Positions 2,592 to 46,810 of a DNA stretch of 64,000 nucleotides are shown here, in pieces (position 1 is the stretch's first letter; the number at the start of each line of letters is the position of its first letter). Both the position numbers and the translations under genes were made by a program. The notes beneath the pieces are model-generated. The model saw only the letters and a list, made by a program, of their open reading frames with translations, had not been told where the DNA came from and did no database searches. Source of the DNA: a bacterium ADurb.Bin212 (GTDB taxonomy: Bacteria; Patescibacteriota; UBA1384; XYA2-FULL-43-10); the NCBI GenBank assembly GCA_002070055.1, contig MWCM01000001.1:16308-80307 (forward strand). The letters are read 5' to 3'.

Positions 2592-2745
2592 AAAAGTAAT
2601 AGTTACAATTAAAAAATTGGATGATTATCGTTTAAACTTTTGGCTTATTGTTTTTGGGTTTTAATTTATATTATGGCGCCAGGCGCCATTTTGTGCTAAT
2701 GTGACGGCTAGAGAGCGAATATCTTGCCGTCTTGGAGGTCGCACC

Positions 2746-3459
2746 ATGAAAGGCGTACTGTATTTTTCGATGCCGAAGTGGTTGGCGAAAGCCTGGCGGG
2801 AGATTTTTCCGCCAGGCGTACTGGACTGTTTCGCCAGGGGATGGAGGCTTGTGATGGCCATCGTTATCGTCATATTCGTGCTGGTGGTGGCTGCCCTCAT
2901 GTCCATCGTGCCGGCAGATGCGGATGAAGCTGCGCCGCTGAGCCTGCCGATGGCCCTCACCGAGATGGTCCGGCTTCACAATGCCGGACTACTGCTCGAC
3001 ATCACCTTGTCGAGTGAACAGTATGTGGGAGAGCTGTTGCCGGATTCGAGCTGGCGTTTTCGGCTCGAGGACGGTTGGCGGCCGTGCGCCGATGGTTTGG
3101 CGCGCTTTGTTAGGCTTGGTGGCAAGCTTCGAGCAGTTGAGCTTGTGCCACCTTCCTCGGTGATGGCAAGAGCCGGAGAGGTTAAGCCCGACACCAAGCT
3201 CTTCAGGCCAAGCAGCCTGGCAGTAGTGTCCCGCCAGTTTGCATCGGCACTGGTGCCGGAATCCCAACCTGAGCAGTGGAGTCTAGGGCTTTGCGTTGGT
3301 GTGCCCGCCGAGGGCAAGGCTACGATTCTGTTGCATAACTCTGGCCAAGGGCGGAGGCTGTTACTAACCTTGGTGGGAGTGTTGCGCGGCGACCAGCGCA
3401 AGATGGAGGTCGCCGGTTTCCGTATTGAGGAGGTGGAGAGCAAGCCCCGGCTGGAGTAA
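2746..3459 (+). CDS. hypothetical single-pass membrane protein (GC-rich island gene)
   Basis: Start chosen at ATG 2746 with a GGAGGT RBS; the track ORF begins at 2701. One TM helix (MAIVIVIFVLVVAALMSIV) then an Ala/Leu/Arg-rich soluble domain. About 60 % GC, far above neighbouring genes, and followed by a stem-loop plus T8 terminator. Confidence 0.45.
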   Translation: MKGVLYFSMPKWLAKAWREIFPPGVLDCFARGWRLVMAIVIVIFVLVVAALMSIVPADADEAAPLSLPMALTEMVRLHNAGLLLDITLSSEQYVGELLPDSSWRFRLEDGWRPCADGLARFVRLGGKLRAVELVPPSSVMARAGEVKPDTKLFRPSSLAVVSRQFASALVPESQPEQWSLGLCVGVPAEGKATILLHNSGQGRRLLLTLVGVLRGDQRKMEVAGFRIEEVESKPRLE

Positions 3460-8430: not shown

Positions 8431-8775
8431 TTACCGACCGGTGGCAAACCATGCGCGCACCAGCTCGGCTGCCAGGGCGCAGCCTTCCGGCTCGCAATGG
8501 CAGGTGACAGCCATGCGCTGGTGGGTACGGTCGATGATGACGATCCGATCGGGGTAGATCGCAATCTCATCGAAAGCCACCTCGTTGCCCTCCGGGTACT
8601 CGCGCCACCACGACTTGACTTCGGTCTCATTCAGCCAACCTCCCCAGTCGTCAGGGACACCGATGGCGTCCTGGTATCTCTGACCACCTACCCAGACCTC
8701 GTCGTCCGCGCAAGGGCTGTCACAGAGGTCACTTACGAACCCGCAGAACCGAAGTGCAGCGATCAGATTGAGCAT
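8431..8775 (-). CDS. hypothetical protein (GC-rich island, distal gene of pair)
   Basis: 114 aa, Trp/acidic-rich (DDWGGWLNETEVKSWWREYPEG); GCAGGAGAC RBS; about 62 % GC. Confidence 0.45.
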   Translation of the reverse strand: MLNLIAALRFCGFVSDLCDSPCADDEVWVGGQRYQDAIGVPDDWGGWLNETEVKSWWREYPEGNEVAFDEIAIYPDRIVIIDRTHQRMAVTCHCEPEGCALAAELVRAWFATGR

Positions 8776-18016: not shown

Positions 18017-18090
18017 TGGTTCCGAGACTAGGAGTCGAACCTAGATTGGCGGTGCCAGAAACCGCTGTCCTGCCATTAGACGATCTCGGA
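18017..18090 (-). tRNA. tRNA-Gln (anticodon CUG)
   Basis: The reverse complement folds as a cloverleaf: acceptor TCCGAGA/TCTCGGA, D-arm GTCT..GGAC, anticodon stem GCGGT/ACCGC with loop TTCTGGC (U33, CUG, G37), T-arm CTAGG-TTCGACT-CCTAG, and an encoded CCA. Confidence 0.75.
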
Positions 18091-18348
18091 ATATTTAATT
18101 TCAATCAGTAAATCTCTAATCTGTTGCCTTAGCAACCTTTTACCCTCGGAAGTTTTCAGAAACCTCTCTCTACGTTGAGCATCCGATTTGCACTTATAAA
18201 CTTCATAATGTACAAGCACGGGTTCTTTTCTCTTAGTAGATATAACCTTATTGGAAGCATGTTGGTTAATTCTCACTTTGAGATTGCTAGTTGAGCCCGT
18301 ATAGAGCTGATTCGTTTTTGTAAGATGAAGAATATAAACATAAAACAT
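18076..18348 (-). CDS. GIY-YIG nuclease family protein (small YhbQ/UPF0213-like)
   Basis: 90 aa; MFYVYILHLTKTNQLYTGSTSNLKVRINQH matches the GIY-YIG motif spacing. The last five codons and the TAA stop overlap the 5' acceptor/D-arm of tRNA-Gln. Confidence 0.65.
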   Translation of the reverse strand: MFYVYILHLTKTNQLYTGSTSNLKVRINQHASNKVISTKRKEPVLVHYEVYKCKSDAQRRERFLKTSEGKRLLRQQIRDLLIEIKYSEIV

Positions 18349-18484
18349 ATTAATTAGACCCTGTCATTCGACAGGGCCATATCGAATGATATGGCGATCT
18401 CGGAACAATAAAGCAATATTATCACTTTTATGGGCTTGATTCAATTGATATTGACAAATGATTATGGAATATATACTATTATGC

Positions 18485-18692
18485 TGTCGTATGTCGCAAG
18501 GGAGACAGGTCGTCCAACGACGTTTGTTGGATGATCCAACAGATGAGGTCCTCCGCAACCGTGGTGGATTATGGTCGCTTAAAGCGACCTCCTGTCTCCT
18601 CAATCTGGGACGCACGTCGCACAACGAGGCGAGTTACGGGTTCTCCCCCGTGATTCGCCTCAAATCATTTTGGGCCTTAAGGCTCTTTTTTT
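18485..18692 (+). ncRNA. candidate structured small RNA (unclassified), about 208 nt with its own promoter and terminator
   Basis: TTGACA at 18451-18456, with -10 TATACT/TACTAT 15-17 nt downstream. The transcribed segment is about 55 % GC in AT-rich context, with nested helices (gggagacagg...cctgtctcc; GGTCGC-UUAAA-GCGACC; gaggcga...tcgcctc; ccaacgacgtttgttgg). It ends in a GCCTTAAGGC hairpin plus T7 at 18672-18692, 35 nt before the RBS of the SIS gene. Confidence 0.5.
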
Positions 18693-18726
18693 GTGTTTTT
18701 GATATACTGTTTGTAAAAGGAGGCAA

Positions 18727-19767
18727 ATGGAACATGCAATGCTAAGAGAAATTAAAGAACAACCGGAGGTGCTTAGGCGCTTGGTTGGGTCTTGTAAACA
18801 TAGTTTTTTTGCTGAGGCAGTAACGCTTATTAGGGAGTCAATTAGTAATGGCGGACAAGTTGTTTTTTTGGGTAATGGCACGTCTTATCACTCTTGTATA
18901 TATGGGCAGTATCTTTTTTCGATCTCTAATCATGTAATTGTTAATATTTTTGATACGGCGGAGTTTGAGCCCTTTATAGAAAATTTAAATCAGAATGCAA
19001 CGGTAGTAATTGTTTCTCAGAGTGGTGAAACGGGGGATGCGTTAGAAATAATTCAAAAACTTGTCCCGAGTAAACCCGAGGGATCAAAAATTATCTCCAT
19101 AACTAATAATCCTAAATCGACTTTGGCCAGGGAATCGGATGTGGCAATAGACTTAATGTTGGGCGAAACCAATGCGATACCAAGCACAAAGGGCTATACC
19201 GCCGAGATGGCAACTTTCGCCTTGCTTTCTGATGGTATTAAAGAGAGCCAAAATTTTGCGGGTAAGGTTGAGACGATCGCAAAGGAGATGAAGAGAGTAA
19301 TCTTCGCAGAACACGAACAAATTAAAGCTCTTTCTGATAAATTAAAAAACCAACAGCTGATGTATGTTCTCGGCCATAGTATCGGTTTGTCAAATGCCTA
19401 CGAAGCGGCTTTGAAGATTAAAGAGTGTGCACACATACAAGCCGAGGGGTATTCTGGCCCAGAGTTCAGGCATGGTCCAAGTTCAATGATTGGCTACAGT
19501 ACTCCGGTTATTGTTTTCGCCCCGGATATCGAAAGTGAAGAGGATCTAAAAAGCGTGGTGGGCGAGGTTAAGCACTCTGGTGGCTATGTAATTGGGGTTG
19601 GATCAGAACATAGTCTCCATTATGATTTGCATTTAAAGACAATTGATGATTATTTGTATTCCCCCTTAACTGCCATTGTGCCTATTCAGTTATTGGCTTT
19701 TGAGTTGGCGATGACCAAGGGTCTTGACCCAGATAAGCCTATTGGAGTTAGGAAAGTGGTAGATTAG
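18727..19767 (+). CDS. SIS-domain phosphosugar isomerase (GlmS C-terminal-like or AgaS-like, two SIS domains)
   Basis: MLREIKEQPEVLRRL resembles the start of the GlmS isomerase half; two SIS motifs (VVFLGNGTSYHS; VIVSQSGETGDALE). No glutaminase domain. AAAGGAGG RBS. Confidence 0.65.
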   Translation: MEHAMLREIKEQPEVLRRLVGSCKHSFFAEAVTLIRESISNGGQVVFLGNGTSYHSCIYGQYLFSISNHVIVNIFDTAEFEPFIENLNQNATVVIVSQSGETGDALEIIQKLVPSKPEGSKIISITNNPKSTLARESDVAIDLMLGETNAIPSTKGYTAEMATFALLSDGIKESQNFAGKVETIAKEMKRVIFAEHEQIKALSDKLKNQQLMYVLGHSIGLSNAYEAALKIKECAHIQAEGYSGPEFRHGPSSMIGYSTPVIVFAPDIESEEDLKSVVGEVKHSGGYVIGVGSEHSLHYDLHLKTIDDYLYSPLTAIVPIQLLAFELAMTKGLDPDKPIGVRKVVD

Positions 19768-19895
19768 AGATCGGCGGATTCTCTCTTGGGCGAATTTTTA
19801 TAATAAGCGGCTTAACAGGTGTCTTTGTTTTGTCGCGGTTTTTATGTTGGGTTGACAATTTTAGTTATTGGGTTATAATAGAATTTCTCAAGGTT

Positions 19896-20012
19896 GGATT
19901 GCGGAAATCTAGGGCGGTCTTGACTTGCTCTGATCGGGCTTAGCCCATCCGCTCTAACCGACCTTGTTCACCTGGTCCCGCCGCCGCCGTTTGCGGCGGG
20001 ACCAATATTTTA
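19896..20012 (+). ncRNA. candidate small RNA B (about 117 nt, unclassified)
   Basis: Near-consensus promoter: TTGACA 19862-19867, 16 nt, TATAAT 19884-19889. GC-rich rod-like hairpin (AAGGUUGG...CCGACCUU enclosing GCGGA...UCCGC). Ends in a 10-bp GGTCCCGCCG/CGGCGGGACC terminator stem at 19974-20002, then a T-run. Confidence 0.45.
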
Positions 20013-20030
20013 TGTGCATATAATACTTTG

Positions 20031-20050
20031 ACGCGTTTGGCGTCTTTTTT
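20031..20050 (+). terminator. second rho-independent terminator (GACGC-GTTTG-GCGTC plus T7)
   Basis: Perfect 5-bp stem with a T7 tract, 20 nt after the first terminator. Confidence 0.55.
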
Positions 20051-20185
20051 TGATTATTTGATAAAATAGATTTTAGACCACAGAAGTTACATTCAGAAAA
20101 TTCAGGAGTATTGAATGAATGGTAGCAGAAAGAGGGTAGTAAGTGCTACGATAGTCTAACACCTAACACCTAACACCTATTATTT

Positions 20186-21610
20186 ATGTGCTTAACAATA
20201 CCGGGAAAAATTAAATCGATTAAAGACGGCGTGGCGACAGTCGAAAATGGTTCCAGAACCGAGCAGATTGAGCTTGGAGTAGTTTTTGATGCCAAAGTAG
20301 GGGATTGGGTGCTTTATGCCACAAATCGCGCCGTGAGACTGATAGATGAGCAGGAGGCGCGTGAGATTATTGAGCTTCTTGAAGATAATTATCAACCGGT
20401 GGATATTGCTTCTCTACCGTTGAGGTATAAAAAGATTGTTTATAAAGTGAGAAACACTGAGAAAAATCAAAATATCAATTTAAAATCAAAAAATATTATT
20501 AATAGCAATTTAACAATCCAGCAATTTAACAATATTCACAAGAGCGATCTCGAATATCTACTACAGTTGAGAGGTAAAAATAATCTTGAAGCCTTTTACA
20601 GTGAGGCTAATGTCTTGCGTAAGAACATAATTAAAGACTTCGTCTGCATACACGGCATTGTAGAATTTTCTAACTATTGCAAGAATTGCTGTCTTTATTG
20701 CGGTATAGGGAGCAAAGCTAAAATACGACGTTATCGTATGACTTCCGACGAAATATTCATGGCAGTCGAACAGGCGGTCGAATTTGATGGTTATAAATTG
20801 GTGGTTTTGCAAAGTGGAGAGGACGATTATTATAGCGATGACGAGCTCGTGTCATTGATAGATAGGATCAAAAAAGATTTAAGAGTTTTTGTCTTCATTT
20901 CGGTGGGAGAGCGGTCTAAAAACTTTTATAAAAGAGCATTCGAAGCGGGGGCAAGCGGCTCACTTTTTCGTTTTGAAACCTCGAATCCGGAGTTATATAG
21001 CCGAATGCATCCGAATCATGATTTACAAAGCAGACTCGAATCTATACAAATGCAAATCGAGATTGGATATTATTTGGCAAGTGGTGGTTTAATCGGCTTA
21101 CCAGGTCAGACTATCTCTGATATGGCAGATGATCTTTTGTTGGTGAAGAAACTTCGGATTCCAATGTTGTCGAGTGGACCCTGGATTCCAAGTTTGACTA
21201 GCCCGCTTGGAATAATAACCAATAACCAAGGCACAAGAAACAAACAAATTCCAAACGGTGTCATTGCGAGGGACGAAGCAATCTTTAACAATTTAGCAAT
21301 AAAACAATTTAGCAATAATGAAAAATTGCGTCTGACTCTTAACTATATCGCGGCGGCGCGCTTTTTAATGCCGGAGATCAAAATTCCTGTGACTACAGCT
21401 TTGGAAACATTAGACCAAGAGAGCGGACGACACAAAGCCTTGTTGGCCGGTGCCAACGCCTTAATGTTTAATATTACTCCGGAAAAATACCGAGGCGATT
21501 ATAATTTATACGATCATAAATATATAGAACGGGAGAAAGTTTGGCAAAAATACGGGCTCTTTAAAGGAGAGGAGAGTTACGAGATGCTAGAAGATAGGTT
21601 AAAGATCTAA
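20186..21610 (+). CDS. HypC/HupF-like N-terminal domain fused to a BioB/HydE/PylB-type radical SAM domain
   Basis: N-terminus MCLTIPGKIKSIKDGVATV...VGDWVL matches the HypC MCLxIP signature. Downstream, NYCKNCCLYCGIG is a CxxxCxxC motif in the C(K/R)NNCxYCG style of BioB/HydE/PylB, and GGLIGLPGQT is a family-like glycine motif. Contains two in-frame repeat-derived inserts (20506-20533; 21224-21318). Confidence 0.55.
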   Translation: MCLTIPGKIKSIKDGVATVENGSRTEQIELGVVFDAKVGDWVLYATNRAVRLIDEQEAREIIELLEDNYQPVDIASLPLRYKKIVYKVRNTEKNQNINLKSKNIINSNLTIQQFNNIHKSDLEYLLQLRGKNNLEAFYSEANVLRKNIIKDFVCIHGIVEFSNYCKNCCLYCGIGSKAKIRRYRMTSDEIFMAVEQAVEFDGYKLVVLQSGEDDYYSDDELVSLIDRIKKDLRVFVFISVGERSKNFYKRAFEAGASGSLFRFETSNPELYSRMHPNHDLQSRLESIQMQIEIGYYLASGGLIGLPGQTISDMADDLLLVKKLRIPMLSSGPWIPSLTSPLGIITNNQGTRNKQIPNGVIARDEAIFNNLAIKQFSNNEKLRLTLNYIAAARFLMPEIKIPVTTALETLDQESGRHKALLAGANALMFNITPEKYRGDYNLYDHKYIEREKVWQKYGLFKGEESYEMLEDRLKI

Positions 21611-21616
21611 ATACGG

Positions 21617-21645
21617 CAAACCCGCCGCGTTCAGCGGCGGGTTTG
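21617..21645. terminator. bidirectional terminator hairpin
   Basis: caaaCCCGCCGCgttcagGCGGCGGGtttg. The stop codon of the minus-strand GC-rich ORF lies in the loop. Confidence 0.65.
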
Positions 21646-22395
21646 TGCTCTTGTGTCTGCTCTCACAACCTCCACCCTTACTTCGCCTACTTTGGCCAGC
21701 GAGTAGGGTAGGGGCGTTACCAGTGTCACGGGCGGCTTTAGGCCCAGCGCGTGACTTGTTAGGTCAAAGCGCTTTACGGACTCGCAGCCCTGCATGTGGC
21801 GCTGAAGAGCTCGGCGTGAGCAGGTTGCCAACTCCTCTTTAAGGTCGAATGACCCTTTTCGTGTCCAGAGGTAGTCGGCAATCTCGGCCAACTCGGTACC
21901 CTTGGGTGGGATGAGGCGTAGCTCCAGCCTGCAGTGCAGGAAGGCTGAACCTCTGGCGATACTACAGCGCAGAGGCAGACTTAACCTAGACGGTAGGCGA
22001 TAGACCTTGCCATAACCCAAGCCCTCCATGATCTGTGCAACCTGCGGGTCCAGGCTGTGGCTTGTGGTTCCACCCGTGTACTCTACTGTGGCGTAGCTTT
22101 CTCTTGCGGTCTGCACCACAATGAAGCGCTTGACCCCGGCGTCACGCAGGGCCAGGTGCTGGCTGCGTCTGGCTACTTCGGCGATCATACCGCCGAGGCT
22201 GGAAACAACTCGCCATAACAGCCAGAATGCGACAACGCCAAACCCCACTCTCTGCCATGTTGCAATCGCCAGCAGTGCCGTGAAGACACCGAAGACGATA
22301 TTATTGCACAGGGTAATAAACCTCACGACGCCCGCAGCCGTCTTGAGGTGATTGAAGGCAGAAACCCTCAGTTCGTCCAAACCGTGATTCTCCAA
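21631..22395 (-). CDS. hypothetical two-TM membrane protein with an Arg-rich cytoplasmic domain (GC-rich island)
   Basis: Start reassigned to TTG 22395, 8 nt after an AAAGGAGG RBS and downstream of a TTTACA-17-TATATT promoter-like sequence. The track ORF extends into AT-rich upstream DNA. Two TM helices, then a roughly 170-aa domain with no motif I recognise. About 60 % GC. Confidence 0.4.
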   Translation of the reverse strand: MENHGLDELRVSAFNHLKTAAGVVRFITLCNNIVFGVFTALLAIATWQRVGFGVVAFWLLWRVVSSLGGMIAEVARRSQHLALRDAGVKRFIVVQTARESYATVEYTGGTTSHSLDPQVAQIMEGLGYGKVYRLPSRLSLPLRCSIARGSAFLHCRLELRLIPPKGTELAEIADYLWTRKGSFDLKEELATCSRRALQRHMQGCESVKRFDLTSHALGLKPPVTLVTPLPYSLAKVGEVRVEVVRADTRAQTRR

Positions 22396-22482
22396 GGCTT
22401 TCGCCTCCTTTGCAGTATTGATCGGACGTATGAATATAACATAAAAGATACAACTTGTAAATAGTCTGATGCTCAATTGCAC

Positions 22483-22521
22483 ACAGCAAAACTCCCGCAA
22501 TAGAATTTTGCGGGAGTTTTG
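22483..22521. terminator. perfect 13-bp hairpin (AAAACTCCCGCAA/TTGCGGGAGTTTT), bidirectional terminator
   Basis: Sits between the methyltransferase stop (22546) and the island gene's promoter region. Confidence 0.6.
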
Positions 22522-24516: not shown

Positions 24517-24586
24517 GGTATCTCCTTAAAAATTAATCATAAGGCGAGGCTCGAGCGGTAAAGCTGCTCGAGCCCGGCTCTTACGA

Positions 24587-25126
24587 TTACCAGCTTAGCT
24601 GGTAGTCAATACCTCCTTCCCAGCTCCCTTCGGAGCGGAAGTTGTGGTGGTACCAGGCGCCGAAGCGCCCGTTGGTGAAGCTTGGTCCCACCCACCATTC
24701 GGGCTTTCCGCCTTCTTTTACGCGGAAGTGACCCGTGAGGGCGAGGCCCTCGGCGAGCGGCACGGCCGGGGTGGACACGTCCACCCATGTTGGTGCGTCT
24801 CCGAGGCCAGCCAGTACCAAGACCTAAGACTTGGTGCTGCCACCACCGAGGCCAAACTGCAGCCCGGGGCGGAGCCAGAGGTTGTCGTCGCGGCGGACTA
24901 CGGCTTTGAGCCCGTCGCCAACTGCGATCTTAGCGATGGTCAGGTCGTAGCCGCTGTGGACGTCACGCTCCTGATAGAGCGTGAGGGCGCCAGTGTTGAC
25001 GCAGACATATGGTGCGACGTAGTCGTCCATGGCGAAGACGCCAGTGGAAACGGTCACGTCGGCGGCGTGGACAGCGGTGAGGCTGGTGAGGATCACGGTG
25101 ATGGCGACGACGATAGTGGTTTTCAT
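24587..25126 (-). pseudogene. outer-membrane beta-barrel (OMP) family gene interrupted by an in-frame TAG
   Basis: AAAGGAGG RBS, then MKTTIVVAITVILTSLTAVHA (signal peptide) followed by an alternating beta-strand pattern. An in-frame TAG sits at 24824-24826 (...GGGSTKS*VLVLAG...). The C-terminus ends ...GIDYQLSW (aromatic terminal residue, as in OMPs). About 60 % GC. A 9-bp perfect hairpin terminator lies at 24553-24579. Confidence 0.5.
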
Positions 25127-25376
25127 TTCGTCGGCCTCCTTTGCGTAAGCCCGCCGGCATGATTTGCCCGAAGCGGGCATTTTGTGAAACTTCAAGGGTT
25201 GTTACACCCTCAGAGATGGAATCTAACGTGCGGATTAGATGCCATCTCTTAAGGTGTATATTGTTAATGTTTGGTCTTGCATGGTGGAACGGCCTAGTGT
25301 ATCATATAAACAAAGAGTGGCAAATAAGACCACAGGGCGGTAAATACCACCATATATTCTAAAACGAGGCTAGAAC

Positions 25377-46540: not shown

Positions 46541-46810
46541 GTGATAAATATGCCAAGATATGATGGAACTGGCCCAATGGGTACTGGTCCAATGACCGGT
46601 CGCGGAATGGGCCCATGCGGCGGTGGCGCTAGCTGGGGCAGAGGTTTCGGTCGAGGCAGAGGATTGGGCATGGGTTACGGCGAACGCTTTGCTGGCAGGT
46701 GCTATCTGACTGCTCGCGAAGAGCTAGATTCTTTAAAGGAAGAAGCAGTTGTAATGGAAGCTGATCTCAAGGCTCTAAAAGAGCAAATTTCCGAAATGGA
46801 AGCTAAATAA
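46541..46810 (+). CDS. small Gly-rich protein with a C-terminal coiled coil (resembles the DUF5320 family)
   Basis: MPRYDGTGPMGTGPMTGRGMGPCGGG then a coiled coil (EELDSLKEEAVVMEADLKALKEQISEMEAK); recalled resemblance only. TTGACA promoter upstream. Confidence 0.45.
   Translation: MINMPRYDGTGPMGTGPMTGRGMGPCGGGASWGRGFGRGRGLGMGYGERFAGRCYLTAREELDSLKEEAVVMEADLKALKEQISEMEAK

Follow-up and report, generated by a model that had tools for sequence, protein, structure and literature searches.

Upstream of the gene for a SIS-domain protein in a 64 kb stretch of bacterial DNA (64,000 nt, hereafter the window) lies a GC-rich, strongly structured segment bounded by a promoter and a terminator, and this raises the question of whether the segment is a leader of that gene, a transcribed spacer or a gene in its own right. 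In our view, with a probability of about one half, the segment is an autonomous, lineage-specific gene for a highly structured small RNA (sRNA) of about 207 nt that would belong to an uncatalogued family. Comparison of sequences establishes the predicted anatomy of the cassette, the covariation of its helices, the lack of a switching structure and its separability from the SIS gene, and we infer that the RNA accumulates as a discrete product.

The cassette and its predicted RNA

The region 18451–18692 of the + strand is predicted to be a whole transcription unit, running from promoter to terminator. Its elements, together with the likely promoter of the gene that follows, are listed below.

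18451..18479, + strand: sigma-70-type promoter, with TTGACA at 18451–18456, a 17 nt spacer and TACTAT at 18474–18479
18486..18499, + strand: predicted 5' end (about 18486) and leader, with the boxes GUCGUAU (18486–18492) and GUCGCAA (18493–18499)
18500..18509, + strand: 5' arm GGGAGACAGG of the long-range helix Pout, from the minimum-energy fold and pairing across loci
18510..18589, + strand: variable inner domain with four hairpins (18510–18520, 18521–18545, 18547–18570 and 18573–18589) in the minimum-energy fold
18591..18600, + strand: 3' arm CCUGUCUCCU of Pout, forming 10 bp with 18500–18509
18609..18622, + strand: two tandem boxes, GACGCAC (18609–18615) and GUCGCAC (18616–18622), 3 nt 5' of hairpin H
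18626..18661, + strand: hairpin H, a 15 bp stem (GAGGCGAG...CUCGCCUC) with loop UUCUCC, −27.1 kcal/mol
18662..18671, + strand: A/U-rich single-stranded spacer AAAUCAUUUU directly after H, 10 nt, unpaired in the fold
18672..18692, + strand: intrinsic terminator T, GGGCC-UUAA-GGCUC followed by U7, with a 5 bp stem, −5.7 kcal/mol
18700..18708, + strand: extended −10 element TGATATACT, the likely SIS promoter, outside the RNA and beginning 8 nt after the U-run

The promoter, which the original prediction had called near-consensus, matches the sigma-70 consensus at 10 of 12 positions; the hexamer TATACT, also named there, is an alternative −10 element at 18472–18477. The start site was placed at about 18486 from the position of the −10 element, giving an RNA that spans 18486–18692. 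Its GC content is 53.1% (57.4% for the core, 18500–18661) compared with 41.4% for the window, in keeping with the earlier figure of about 55%. The + strand folds with an energy of −100.3 kcal/mol, against −64.1 ± 4.6 kcal/mol for 200 dinucleotide shuffles, none of which folds as well (z = −7.9), and the − strand of the cassette folds more weakly (−81.1 kcal/mol, z = −5.3).

In the fold, the leader is followed by Pout enclosing the four hairpins, a junction, hairpin H, the A/U-rich spacer and hairpin T with its U7 tract. The leader can pair with 18606–18622 (duplex energy −14.2 kcal/mol), a pairing that is also present in the minimum-energy fold. All of the helices proposed earlier exist, two of them as described: the hairpin GGUCGC-UUAAA-GCGACC occupies 18573–18589 in the inner domain, and GAGGCGAG pairs with CUCGCCUC as the stem of H. 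The proposed long-range helix exists as the 10 bp between GGGAGACAGG and CCUGUCUCCU, but its suggested 4 bp extension competes with two flanking hairpins and is not part of the minimum-energy fold. The terminator is likewise present as a hairpin plus U7, and T forms with a probability of at least 0.97 in the full RNA; however, the 35 nt that had been given as its distance from the ribosome-binding site of the SIS gene is in fact the distance from the U-run to the start codon (ATG, 18727). The ribosome-binding site itself, AAAGGAGG (18716–18723), is located about 23 nt past the U-run.

Relatives and conserved elements

Relatives were gathered through contigs encoding orthologues of the SIS protein and through one genome scan, which gave locus L006; there are 13 distinct SIS loci in all, the window included. 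A metagenome scan with the SIS alignment returned, among the matches listed, ordinary GlmS genes with at most 37% identity and no new relatives, and viral contigs scanned for the box-hairpin-terminator pattern gave 0 matches. The RNA is found upstream of SIS in 10 of the 13 loci, namely the window and, with the identity of the SIS protein in parentheses, L001 (81%), L003 (64%; reduced RNA), L006 (51%), L087 (49%), L170 (49%), L088 (48%), L174 (46%), L175 (45%) and L172 (44%). The remaining three loci, L171, L173 and L086 (134 nt of upstream sequence only in the last), are without a GC-rich RNA. With two further RNAs of a second kind (type B), which have the same 3' end joined to a pseudoknotted 5' domain and precede a radical-SAM gene in L170 and a metallophosphoesterase gene in L171, the family has 12 distinct members. 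A promoter of the TTGACA type, with a spacing of 16 or 17 nt and a TAnnnT −10 element, occupies the same place in L001, L174, L170, L172, L175, L087, L088 and L006, the −35 element being CTGACA in L006 and TTGGCA in L088, and the folds of the related RNAs all have strongly negative energies. As far as sampled, the family appears to be limited to Saccharibacteria-like bacteria of the Candidate Phyla Radiation (CPR), a lineage label that derives from one named metagenome-assembled genome (MAG).

The type B RNAs are located at 1790–2007 of L170 and 1425–1631 of L171, and seem to have an H-type pseudoknot as their 5' domain. Two helices of L170, GUGAACC/GGUUCAC and GCAGCCG/CGGCUGC, covary with GGUUGC/GCAACC and GCAGCUGGU/ACCAGCUGC of L171, and a loop, CGCUCCCCCCCGG, is conserved.

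Covariation in related loci, which had been proposed as the check on the RNA, is present: Pout, H and T are each conserved with compensatory changes. For Pout, measured in 10 loci over 10 nt of each arm starting at the outermost pair and moving inward, 92% of cells are paired, compared with 55 ± 4% in column shuffles (0 of 2000 reach 92%) and 43–59% in slid registers, and both sides change at 10 of 10 positions. Plain MAFFT alignment followed by RNAalifold gave no pairs for the 3' modules, the arms being misaligned, and a covariance model was used instead. Seeded on the window and L001 only, this model retrieves the 3' modules of L174, L170, L088, L172, L087 and L006, and it also picks up those of a second RNA family described below. 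The 3' module model finds the module in ten other cassettes, with one weak match of 18 bits in 690 kb of unrelated GlmS neighbourhoods. In the resulting eight-sequence alignment 96.5% of the cells of H and T pair, as against 72.5% after shuffling (0 of 500) and 32–47% in slid controls; changes on both sides are seen at 14 of 20 pairs, and at 13 of 15 in H alone. The helices of L001 and L174 carry G-C to G-U changes, which fit an RNA read from the + strand.

The box, with consensus G(U/A)CG(U/C)A(C/A), is located just 5' of H in 11 of 11 aligned 3' modules, where -CG-AC is invariant, and GUCGUAC occurs in seven of 11 RNAs (0.1 expected). GUCGU is present 19 times where 3.6 are expected, the repetition of a short motif that characterizes sponge RNAs, and each RNA has one to seven copies of G[UA]CG[UC]; the box recurs two to seven times per molecule, placed immediately 5' of helices. 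In the window RNA, GUCGUAU-GUCGCAA stand 5' of the long-range helix and GACGCAC-GUCGCAC 5' of H. An A/U-rich spacer of 8–23 nt is present in all relatives, and most members share GAGCC-N3-4-GGCUC-U6-7-GUG as their terminator. L001 retains the inner domain, with compensatory and G-U changes, L174 retains part of it, and more distant relatives have other hairpins in its place; neither the number nor the sequence of inner-domain helices agrees between the window type, the L087 type, L006, L175 and type B. Because the box is the sole sequence element kept family-wide and recurs 5' of helices that are free to vary, we tentatively suggest that the RNA may bind a protein, as a scaffold or a sponge.

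We also considered whether the box and hairpin form a dispersed repeat of the repetitive extragenic palindromic (REP) kind, and rejected this, as the window has no further copy and the box is not over-represented. Box heptamers number 26 across the whole window (48 expected), three of them inside this RNA, and the 64 kb contain only one place at which a box precedes a strong hairpin, 5' of H.

The claims that the RNA matches no known family and that it may represent a new class both stand, given the conserved helices described above and the results of searching Rfam. In the window, the only sequences that reach a gathering threshold of Rfam 15 are two tRNAs; when 18300–18800 was searched with lax filters at E ≤ 10, the best match overlapping the RNA scored 21 bits against a threshold of 102, and nine related loci searched at E ≤ 1 gave tRNAs only. 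A known RNA (a glmS ribozyme, T-box leader, 6S RNA or other housekeeping RNA) so divergent in CPR bacteria that Rfam misses it would agree with the kinship of the SIS protein to the isomerase half of GlmS, glmS ribozymes being found before glmS genes, and with the tRNA-Gln gene that is always adjacent. We consider it very improbable, since the window has no match even at lax settings and the nine relatives have none, and since the RNA has a terminator of its own. The particular candidates fail as well. For the glmS ribozyme there is no match to RF00234, no AGCGCC block and no GCGCC block common to the members; for a T-box leader there is neither an Rfam match nor a conserved UGGN-containing T-box sequence; for 6S RNA there is again no match, and the fold, a multi-branch 5' domain with two 3' hairpins, is not rod-like. 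Hammerhead-like or other ribozyme cores were rejected because the string CAGAUGAGG of the window is not kept in L001 and Rfam has no match, and mimicry of the 3' end of 16S rRNA (GUCGUAACAAGG...GGGGAACCUGC) was rejected because local alignments are not significant (z ≤ 2).

That the cassette instead encodes a small protein is less credible still. Open reading frames (ORFs) do exist, of 95 amino acids at 18458–18745 (+), of 86 amino acids at 18364–18624 (−) and of 17 codons from the AUG at 18481, the last of which is also open in L001. However, none of the overlapping ORFs has a Pfam match and the window differs from L001 by single-nucleotide indels that break the long frames, two findings that together exclude coding; furthermore, substitutions preserve base pairs rather than codons, there is no ribosome-binding site, the AUG at 18481 is upstream of the predicted start site and L174 has no such ORF.

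Leader of the SIS gene or separate gene

In a riboswitch or attenuator an alternative pairing would be expected to compete with the terminator, and we find none. The probability that T forms is 0.93–1.0 in all full-length members. With the 5' arm of T blocked, its 3' arm remains single-stranded in six of nine members and in the other three finds partners at nucleotides 7–15 of the transcript, which are not a common anti-terminator element; there is thus no conserved anti-terminator among the nine. In several members H together with its U-rich tract is itself terminator-like (in the window, and in L170 as H plus U7), giving tandem terminators.

The SIS gene is likely to be driven by an extended −10 promoter of its own. 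Of 20 comparable regions, 14 (3.6 expected) have the pattern TGnTAnnnT between the terminator and the start codon, and the element is found in nine of the ten SIS loci that bear the RNA and in two of the three that do not. When L171 is compared with L172, whose SIS protein is 61% identical, both flanks align and a promoter-RNA-terminator cassette of about 240 nt is present only in L172, while TTTTGATATGAT, the ribosome-binding site and the SIS gene are kept in both. The distance between RNA and SIS ranges from 35 to 333 nt (333 in L006), and pairing of the RNA with the SIS ribosome-binding region is no better than in shuffles and has no consistent site. In L087, at 372–455 on the − strand, a second covariance model finds the 3' module right behind the stop codon of a 136-residue ORF, as a box (CGUCGAAC), a GC hairpin of 13 bp, a spacer and a short terminator; that the module occurs after an ordinary ORF indicates that the 3' module is a lineage-specific compound terminator and not a gene-specific switch.

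Of the two possibilities left by the original prediction, a stand-alone sRNA or a transcription-attenuating riboswitch, the discrete and structured promoter-to-terminator RNA holds as a prediction, and the riboswitch or attenuator reading is not supported, given the lack of competing pairing, the unconserved inner domain, the promoter of the SIS gene and locus L171. The association with amino-sugar genes is retained in part. The 10 RNAs upstream of SIS agree with it, all loci having been fetched via SIS, but the same 3' module also precedes radical-SAM and metallophosphoesterase genes and follows an ordinary ORF.

The window has a second cassette, located between SIS and the radical-SAM gene that follows it, with these elements.

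19852–19879, + strand: RNA-2 promoter, a perfect TTGACA-16-TATAAT
about 19886–20052, + strand: RNA-2, −68.9 kcal/mol, z = −5.7
19974–20003, + strand: GC hairpin of 11–12 bp, followed by an A/U spacer
20030–20051, + strand: RNA-2 terminator, followed by TGATAAAAT; the whole unit spans 19852–20066

RNA-2 has no Rfam match. It covaries with its copy in L001, and relatives are found before the same radical-SAM gene in L087, L088, L170 and L175. RNA-2 lacks the box and bears no relation in its 5' domain to the RNA upstream of SIS, but the covariance models recognize its 3' module. It is a separate family, and only the layout of the 3' module is common to both.

The strongest competitor of an autonomous gene, a serious one though less likely, is a cis-acting leader of SIS, in which a strong promoter is mostly stopped at the terminator and a signal permits read-through. 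The signal might be a metabolite acting on the 5' domain, a protein binding the box, or an RNA element that makes the polymerase resistant to termination. Such a leader would account for the RNA always lying on the same strand as, and directly upstream of, the next gene, be it SIS, radical-SAM or metallophosphoesterase, and for two different cassettes preceding two consecutive genes of the cluster, the only two such units in 64 kb; the weak terminator stem would allow tunable termination, and the conserved single-stranded box beside a hairpin could be a protein site. On the other hand, the terminator lacks a competing partner, and a stable 15 bp hairpin and a spacer separate it from the 5' domain. 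The inner domain, unlike the aptamer of a riboswitch, is not conserved even between loci with 45–50% SIS identity. The extended −10 element of SIS is kept whether the cassette is there or not, RNA and SIS are anywhere from 35 to 333 nt apart, in L087 the module stands directly behind an ordinary ORF, and the RNA does not pair consistently with the ribosome-binding region of SIS. An elaboration that we regard as unlikely would make the RNA upstream of SIS and RNA-2 two new gene-specific leader classes of a SIS/HypC-HydE-like radical-SAM pathway in Saccharibacteria, with different sensor domains and a shared, lineage-specific box-hairpin-short terminator output module that acts through a trans-acting factor or the polymerase itself instead of alternative pairing. 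If true, such a pair of leaders with a shared output module would be a design not described for riboswitches or known attenuators. Less probable again is that the RNA has no function, the segment being a transcribed spacer that has accumulated GC hairpins or an insulator of promoter and compound terminator between tRNA-Gln and SIS. The fast turnover of the inner domain, with whole hairpins gained and lost, would fit this, as would the fragments of tRNA-Gln with GC hairpins that adjoin the cassette in L088, L171 and the window, the dispensability of the cassette in L171 and L173 and the double use of the 3' module as a gene terminator. However, promoter, Pout, box and H are maintained at about 45% SIS identity with changes that are compensatory and do not resemble decay, and no hairpin of the cassette has a second copy in the window.

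As a whole, the results favour the autonomous sRNA gene, with its predicted promoter and intrinsic terminator, its non-coding sequence and its conservation in relatives. In the model that we propose, RNA polymerase would start at the consensus sigma-70 promoter (18451–18479) and make the 5' domain closed by Pout and then the box-hairpin-spacer-short terminator module, at which a discrete RNA would be released. SIS would be transcribed from its own extended −10 promoter, 8 nt past the U-run. With so weak a terminator stem, transcription probably runs on into SIS to some extent, and we take this to be secondary.

Several points weigh against this interpretation. The promoter, the start site and termination are consensus predictions. 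With a 5 bp terminator stem of −5.7 kcal/mol, read-through into SIS could plausibly be substantial. The RNA is always co-oriented with the next gene and usually 35–110 nt from it, and the presence of an unrelated second cassette of the same layout before the next gene of the cluster hints at gene-specific roles in cis. The suggested binding of a protein is drawn solely from repetition of the motif. Every relative was fetched through the SIS protein, which biases both the gene association and the apparent restriction to this cluster. The arms of Pout behind the 92% pairing were chosen by eye, and in every locus except one they match the outer helix of the minimum-energy fold; the alignment of H and T was fitted to the model, so that its 96.5% is somewhat inflated, although the margin remains large.

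Neighbouring genes and comparable RNAs

The genes that surround the cassette are as follows.

18017–18090, − strand: tRNA-Gln(CUG), upstream of the cassette
18076–18348, − strand: gene for a small GIY-YIG protein, upstream of the cassette
ATG at 18727, + strand: SIS protein of 346 amino acids with two SIS domains, downstream of the cassette
20186–21610, + strand: fusion of a HypC-like domain and a HydE-like radical-SAM protein, the next gene after SIS

The SIS protein is similar to the isomerase half of GlmS, with a weaker resemblance to NagB-II/GlmD glucosamine-6-phosphate deaminases, and scores below every curated cut-off. Its best match in a named genome is in an uncultured Candidatus Saccharibacteria MAG, with 51% identity and the same gene order. 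The radical-SAM fusion carries its HypC/HupF-like domain at the N-terminus and scores 234.7 bits against the HydE equivalog cut-off of 254.6 bits; in related loci its gene is always paired with the GlmS-isomerase-like SIS protein. A tandem repeat, (CTAACAC)x3, occupies 20156–20178 (+) just before the radical-SAM start codon. In L003 (6418–7018) and L006 (5027–5510) genes of PF05635 ('23S rRNA intervening sequence protein') are inserted between SIS and radical-SAM, with AAAGTTCATAAAGT-like repeats arrayed on both sides in inverted orientation, and L175 (1900–2040) has the repeats without the gene; gene and repeats look like a small mobile cassette.

On the other side, the GIY-YIG ORF runs 15 nt into the real tRNA-Gln. 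Upstream of this ORF, at 18350–18412 of the − strand, are UCCGAGAUCG, an insert of 36 nt with two hairpins, and UCUAAU; joined together, UCCGAGAUCG and UCUAAU make up nucleotides 1–16 of the tRNA-Gln gene, here split by the two GC hairpins. Similar GC-rich, hairpin-studded tRNA-Gln fragments are found in L088 (2345–2470), L171 (40–170), L003 (4890–4937) and L001 (2120–2150).

Elsewhere in the window, GC islands of 55–70% (window, 41%) are located at 24540–25140 (−), 2701–3459, 8431–8775 and 21631–22500. None of the four has a Pfam match, and they may be foreign GC-rich genes rather than RNAs; as candidates for further RNAs the islands were rejected, those inspected being GC-rich coding genes. 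In the island at 24540–25140 the − strand protein begins MKTTIVVAITVILTSLTAVHA, which is signal-peptide-like. At 46551–46810 (+) a small GC-rich ORF lies behind a TTGACA promoter, encodes a glycine-rich peptide (MPRYDGTGPMGTGPMTGRGMGPCGGG...) and is followed by a GC hairpin.

Among known RNAs, the raiA motif RNA and similar orphan structured sRNAs, which were found by searches of GC-rich intergenic regions, come close to the cassette in kind. RNAs of the raiA type are also about 200 nt long, multi-helix and GC-rich in an AT-rich genome, and usually lie upstream of and co-oriented with one gene while having a terminator of their own. Rfam should include raiA, and the RNA described here has no match there; it also belongs to another phylum, and its fast-evolving inner domain contrasts with the high conservation of raiA. 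GlmY and GlmZ of Enterobacteria share with the cassette a length of about 200 nt, an own promoter, stem-loops and a single-stranded stretch before the terminator, and they are functionally connected to a GlmS-type enzyme. They show no homology to our RNA, which has no Rfam match, and they are not encoded beside glmS; furthermore, GlmZ pairs with the glmS leader, whereas the cassette RNA shows no consistent pairing with the start region of SIS.

The sponge RNAs CsrB and RsmZ, with a short motif repeated beside or within variable hairpins ahead of a terminator, have a layout similar to that of the cassette, and our suggestion that a protein may be bound is founded on this analogy. Their motif is GGA, as opposed to G(U/A)CG(U/C)A(C/A), and the copy number here is low (2–7). 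The glmS ribozyme (RF00234) is of similar size and, like the cassette, precedes the gene for a GlmS-related SIS protein; it differs in that the cassette has no model match, conserved core, cleavage block or evident doubly pseudoknotted core, ends in a predicted terminator and is followed by a gene that probably has its own promoter. The order promoter, structured RNA, terminator, gene is also that of type III toxin-antitoxin loci and of the antitermination RNAs put (phage HK022) and EAR, the likeness being one of layout only. The cassette has neither the tandem exact repeats nor the downstream endoribonuclease toxin of the former, and put and EAR, which are in Rfam or defined by sequence, do not match it.

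The genomes of Saccharibacteria and other CPR bacteria are tiny and encode few regulators. Our literature searches returned no description of such RNAs, and in two large non-coding RNA surveys searched by keyword (PMC11109978, PMC8632094) Saccharibacteria, TM7 and Patescibacteria are absent as terms. A 2022 preprint on the transcriptome of the cultivated Nanosynbacter lyticus TM7x notes that the strain lacked validated small RNAs (10.1101/2022.03.25.485537). If the cassette RNA proves to be only an autonomous sRNA it would still be a useful new family for annotation, with modest general impact. The repeated box-helix unit and the common compound 3' module provide handles for pull-downs, Term-seq and genome-wide model searches. 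The cassette RNA and RNA-2 would be among the first candidate regulatory RNAs for a Saccharibacteria-like lineage, both of them lying beside a conserved, uncharacterized pair of genes encoding a GlmS-isomerase-like SIS protein and a HypC-HydE-like radical-SAM protein.

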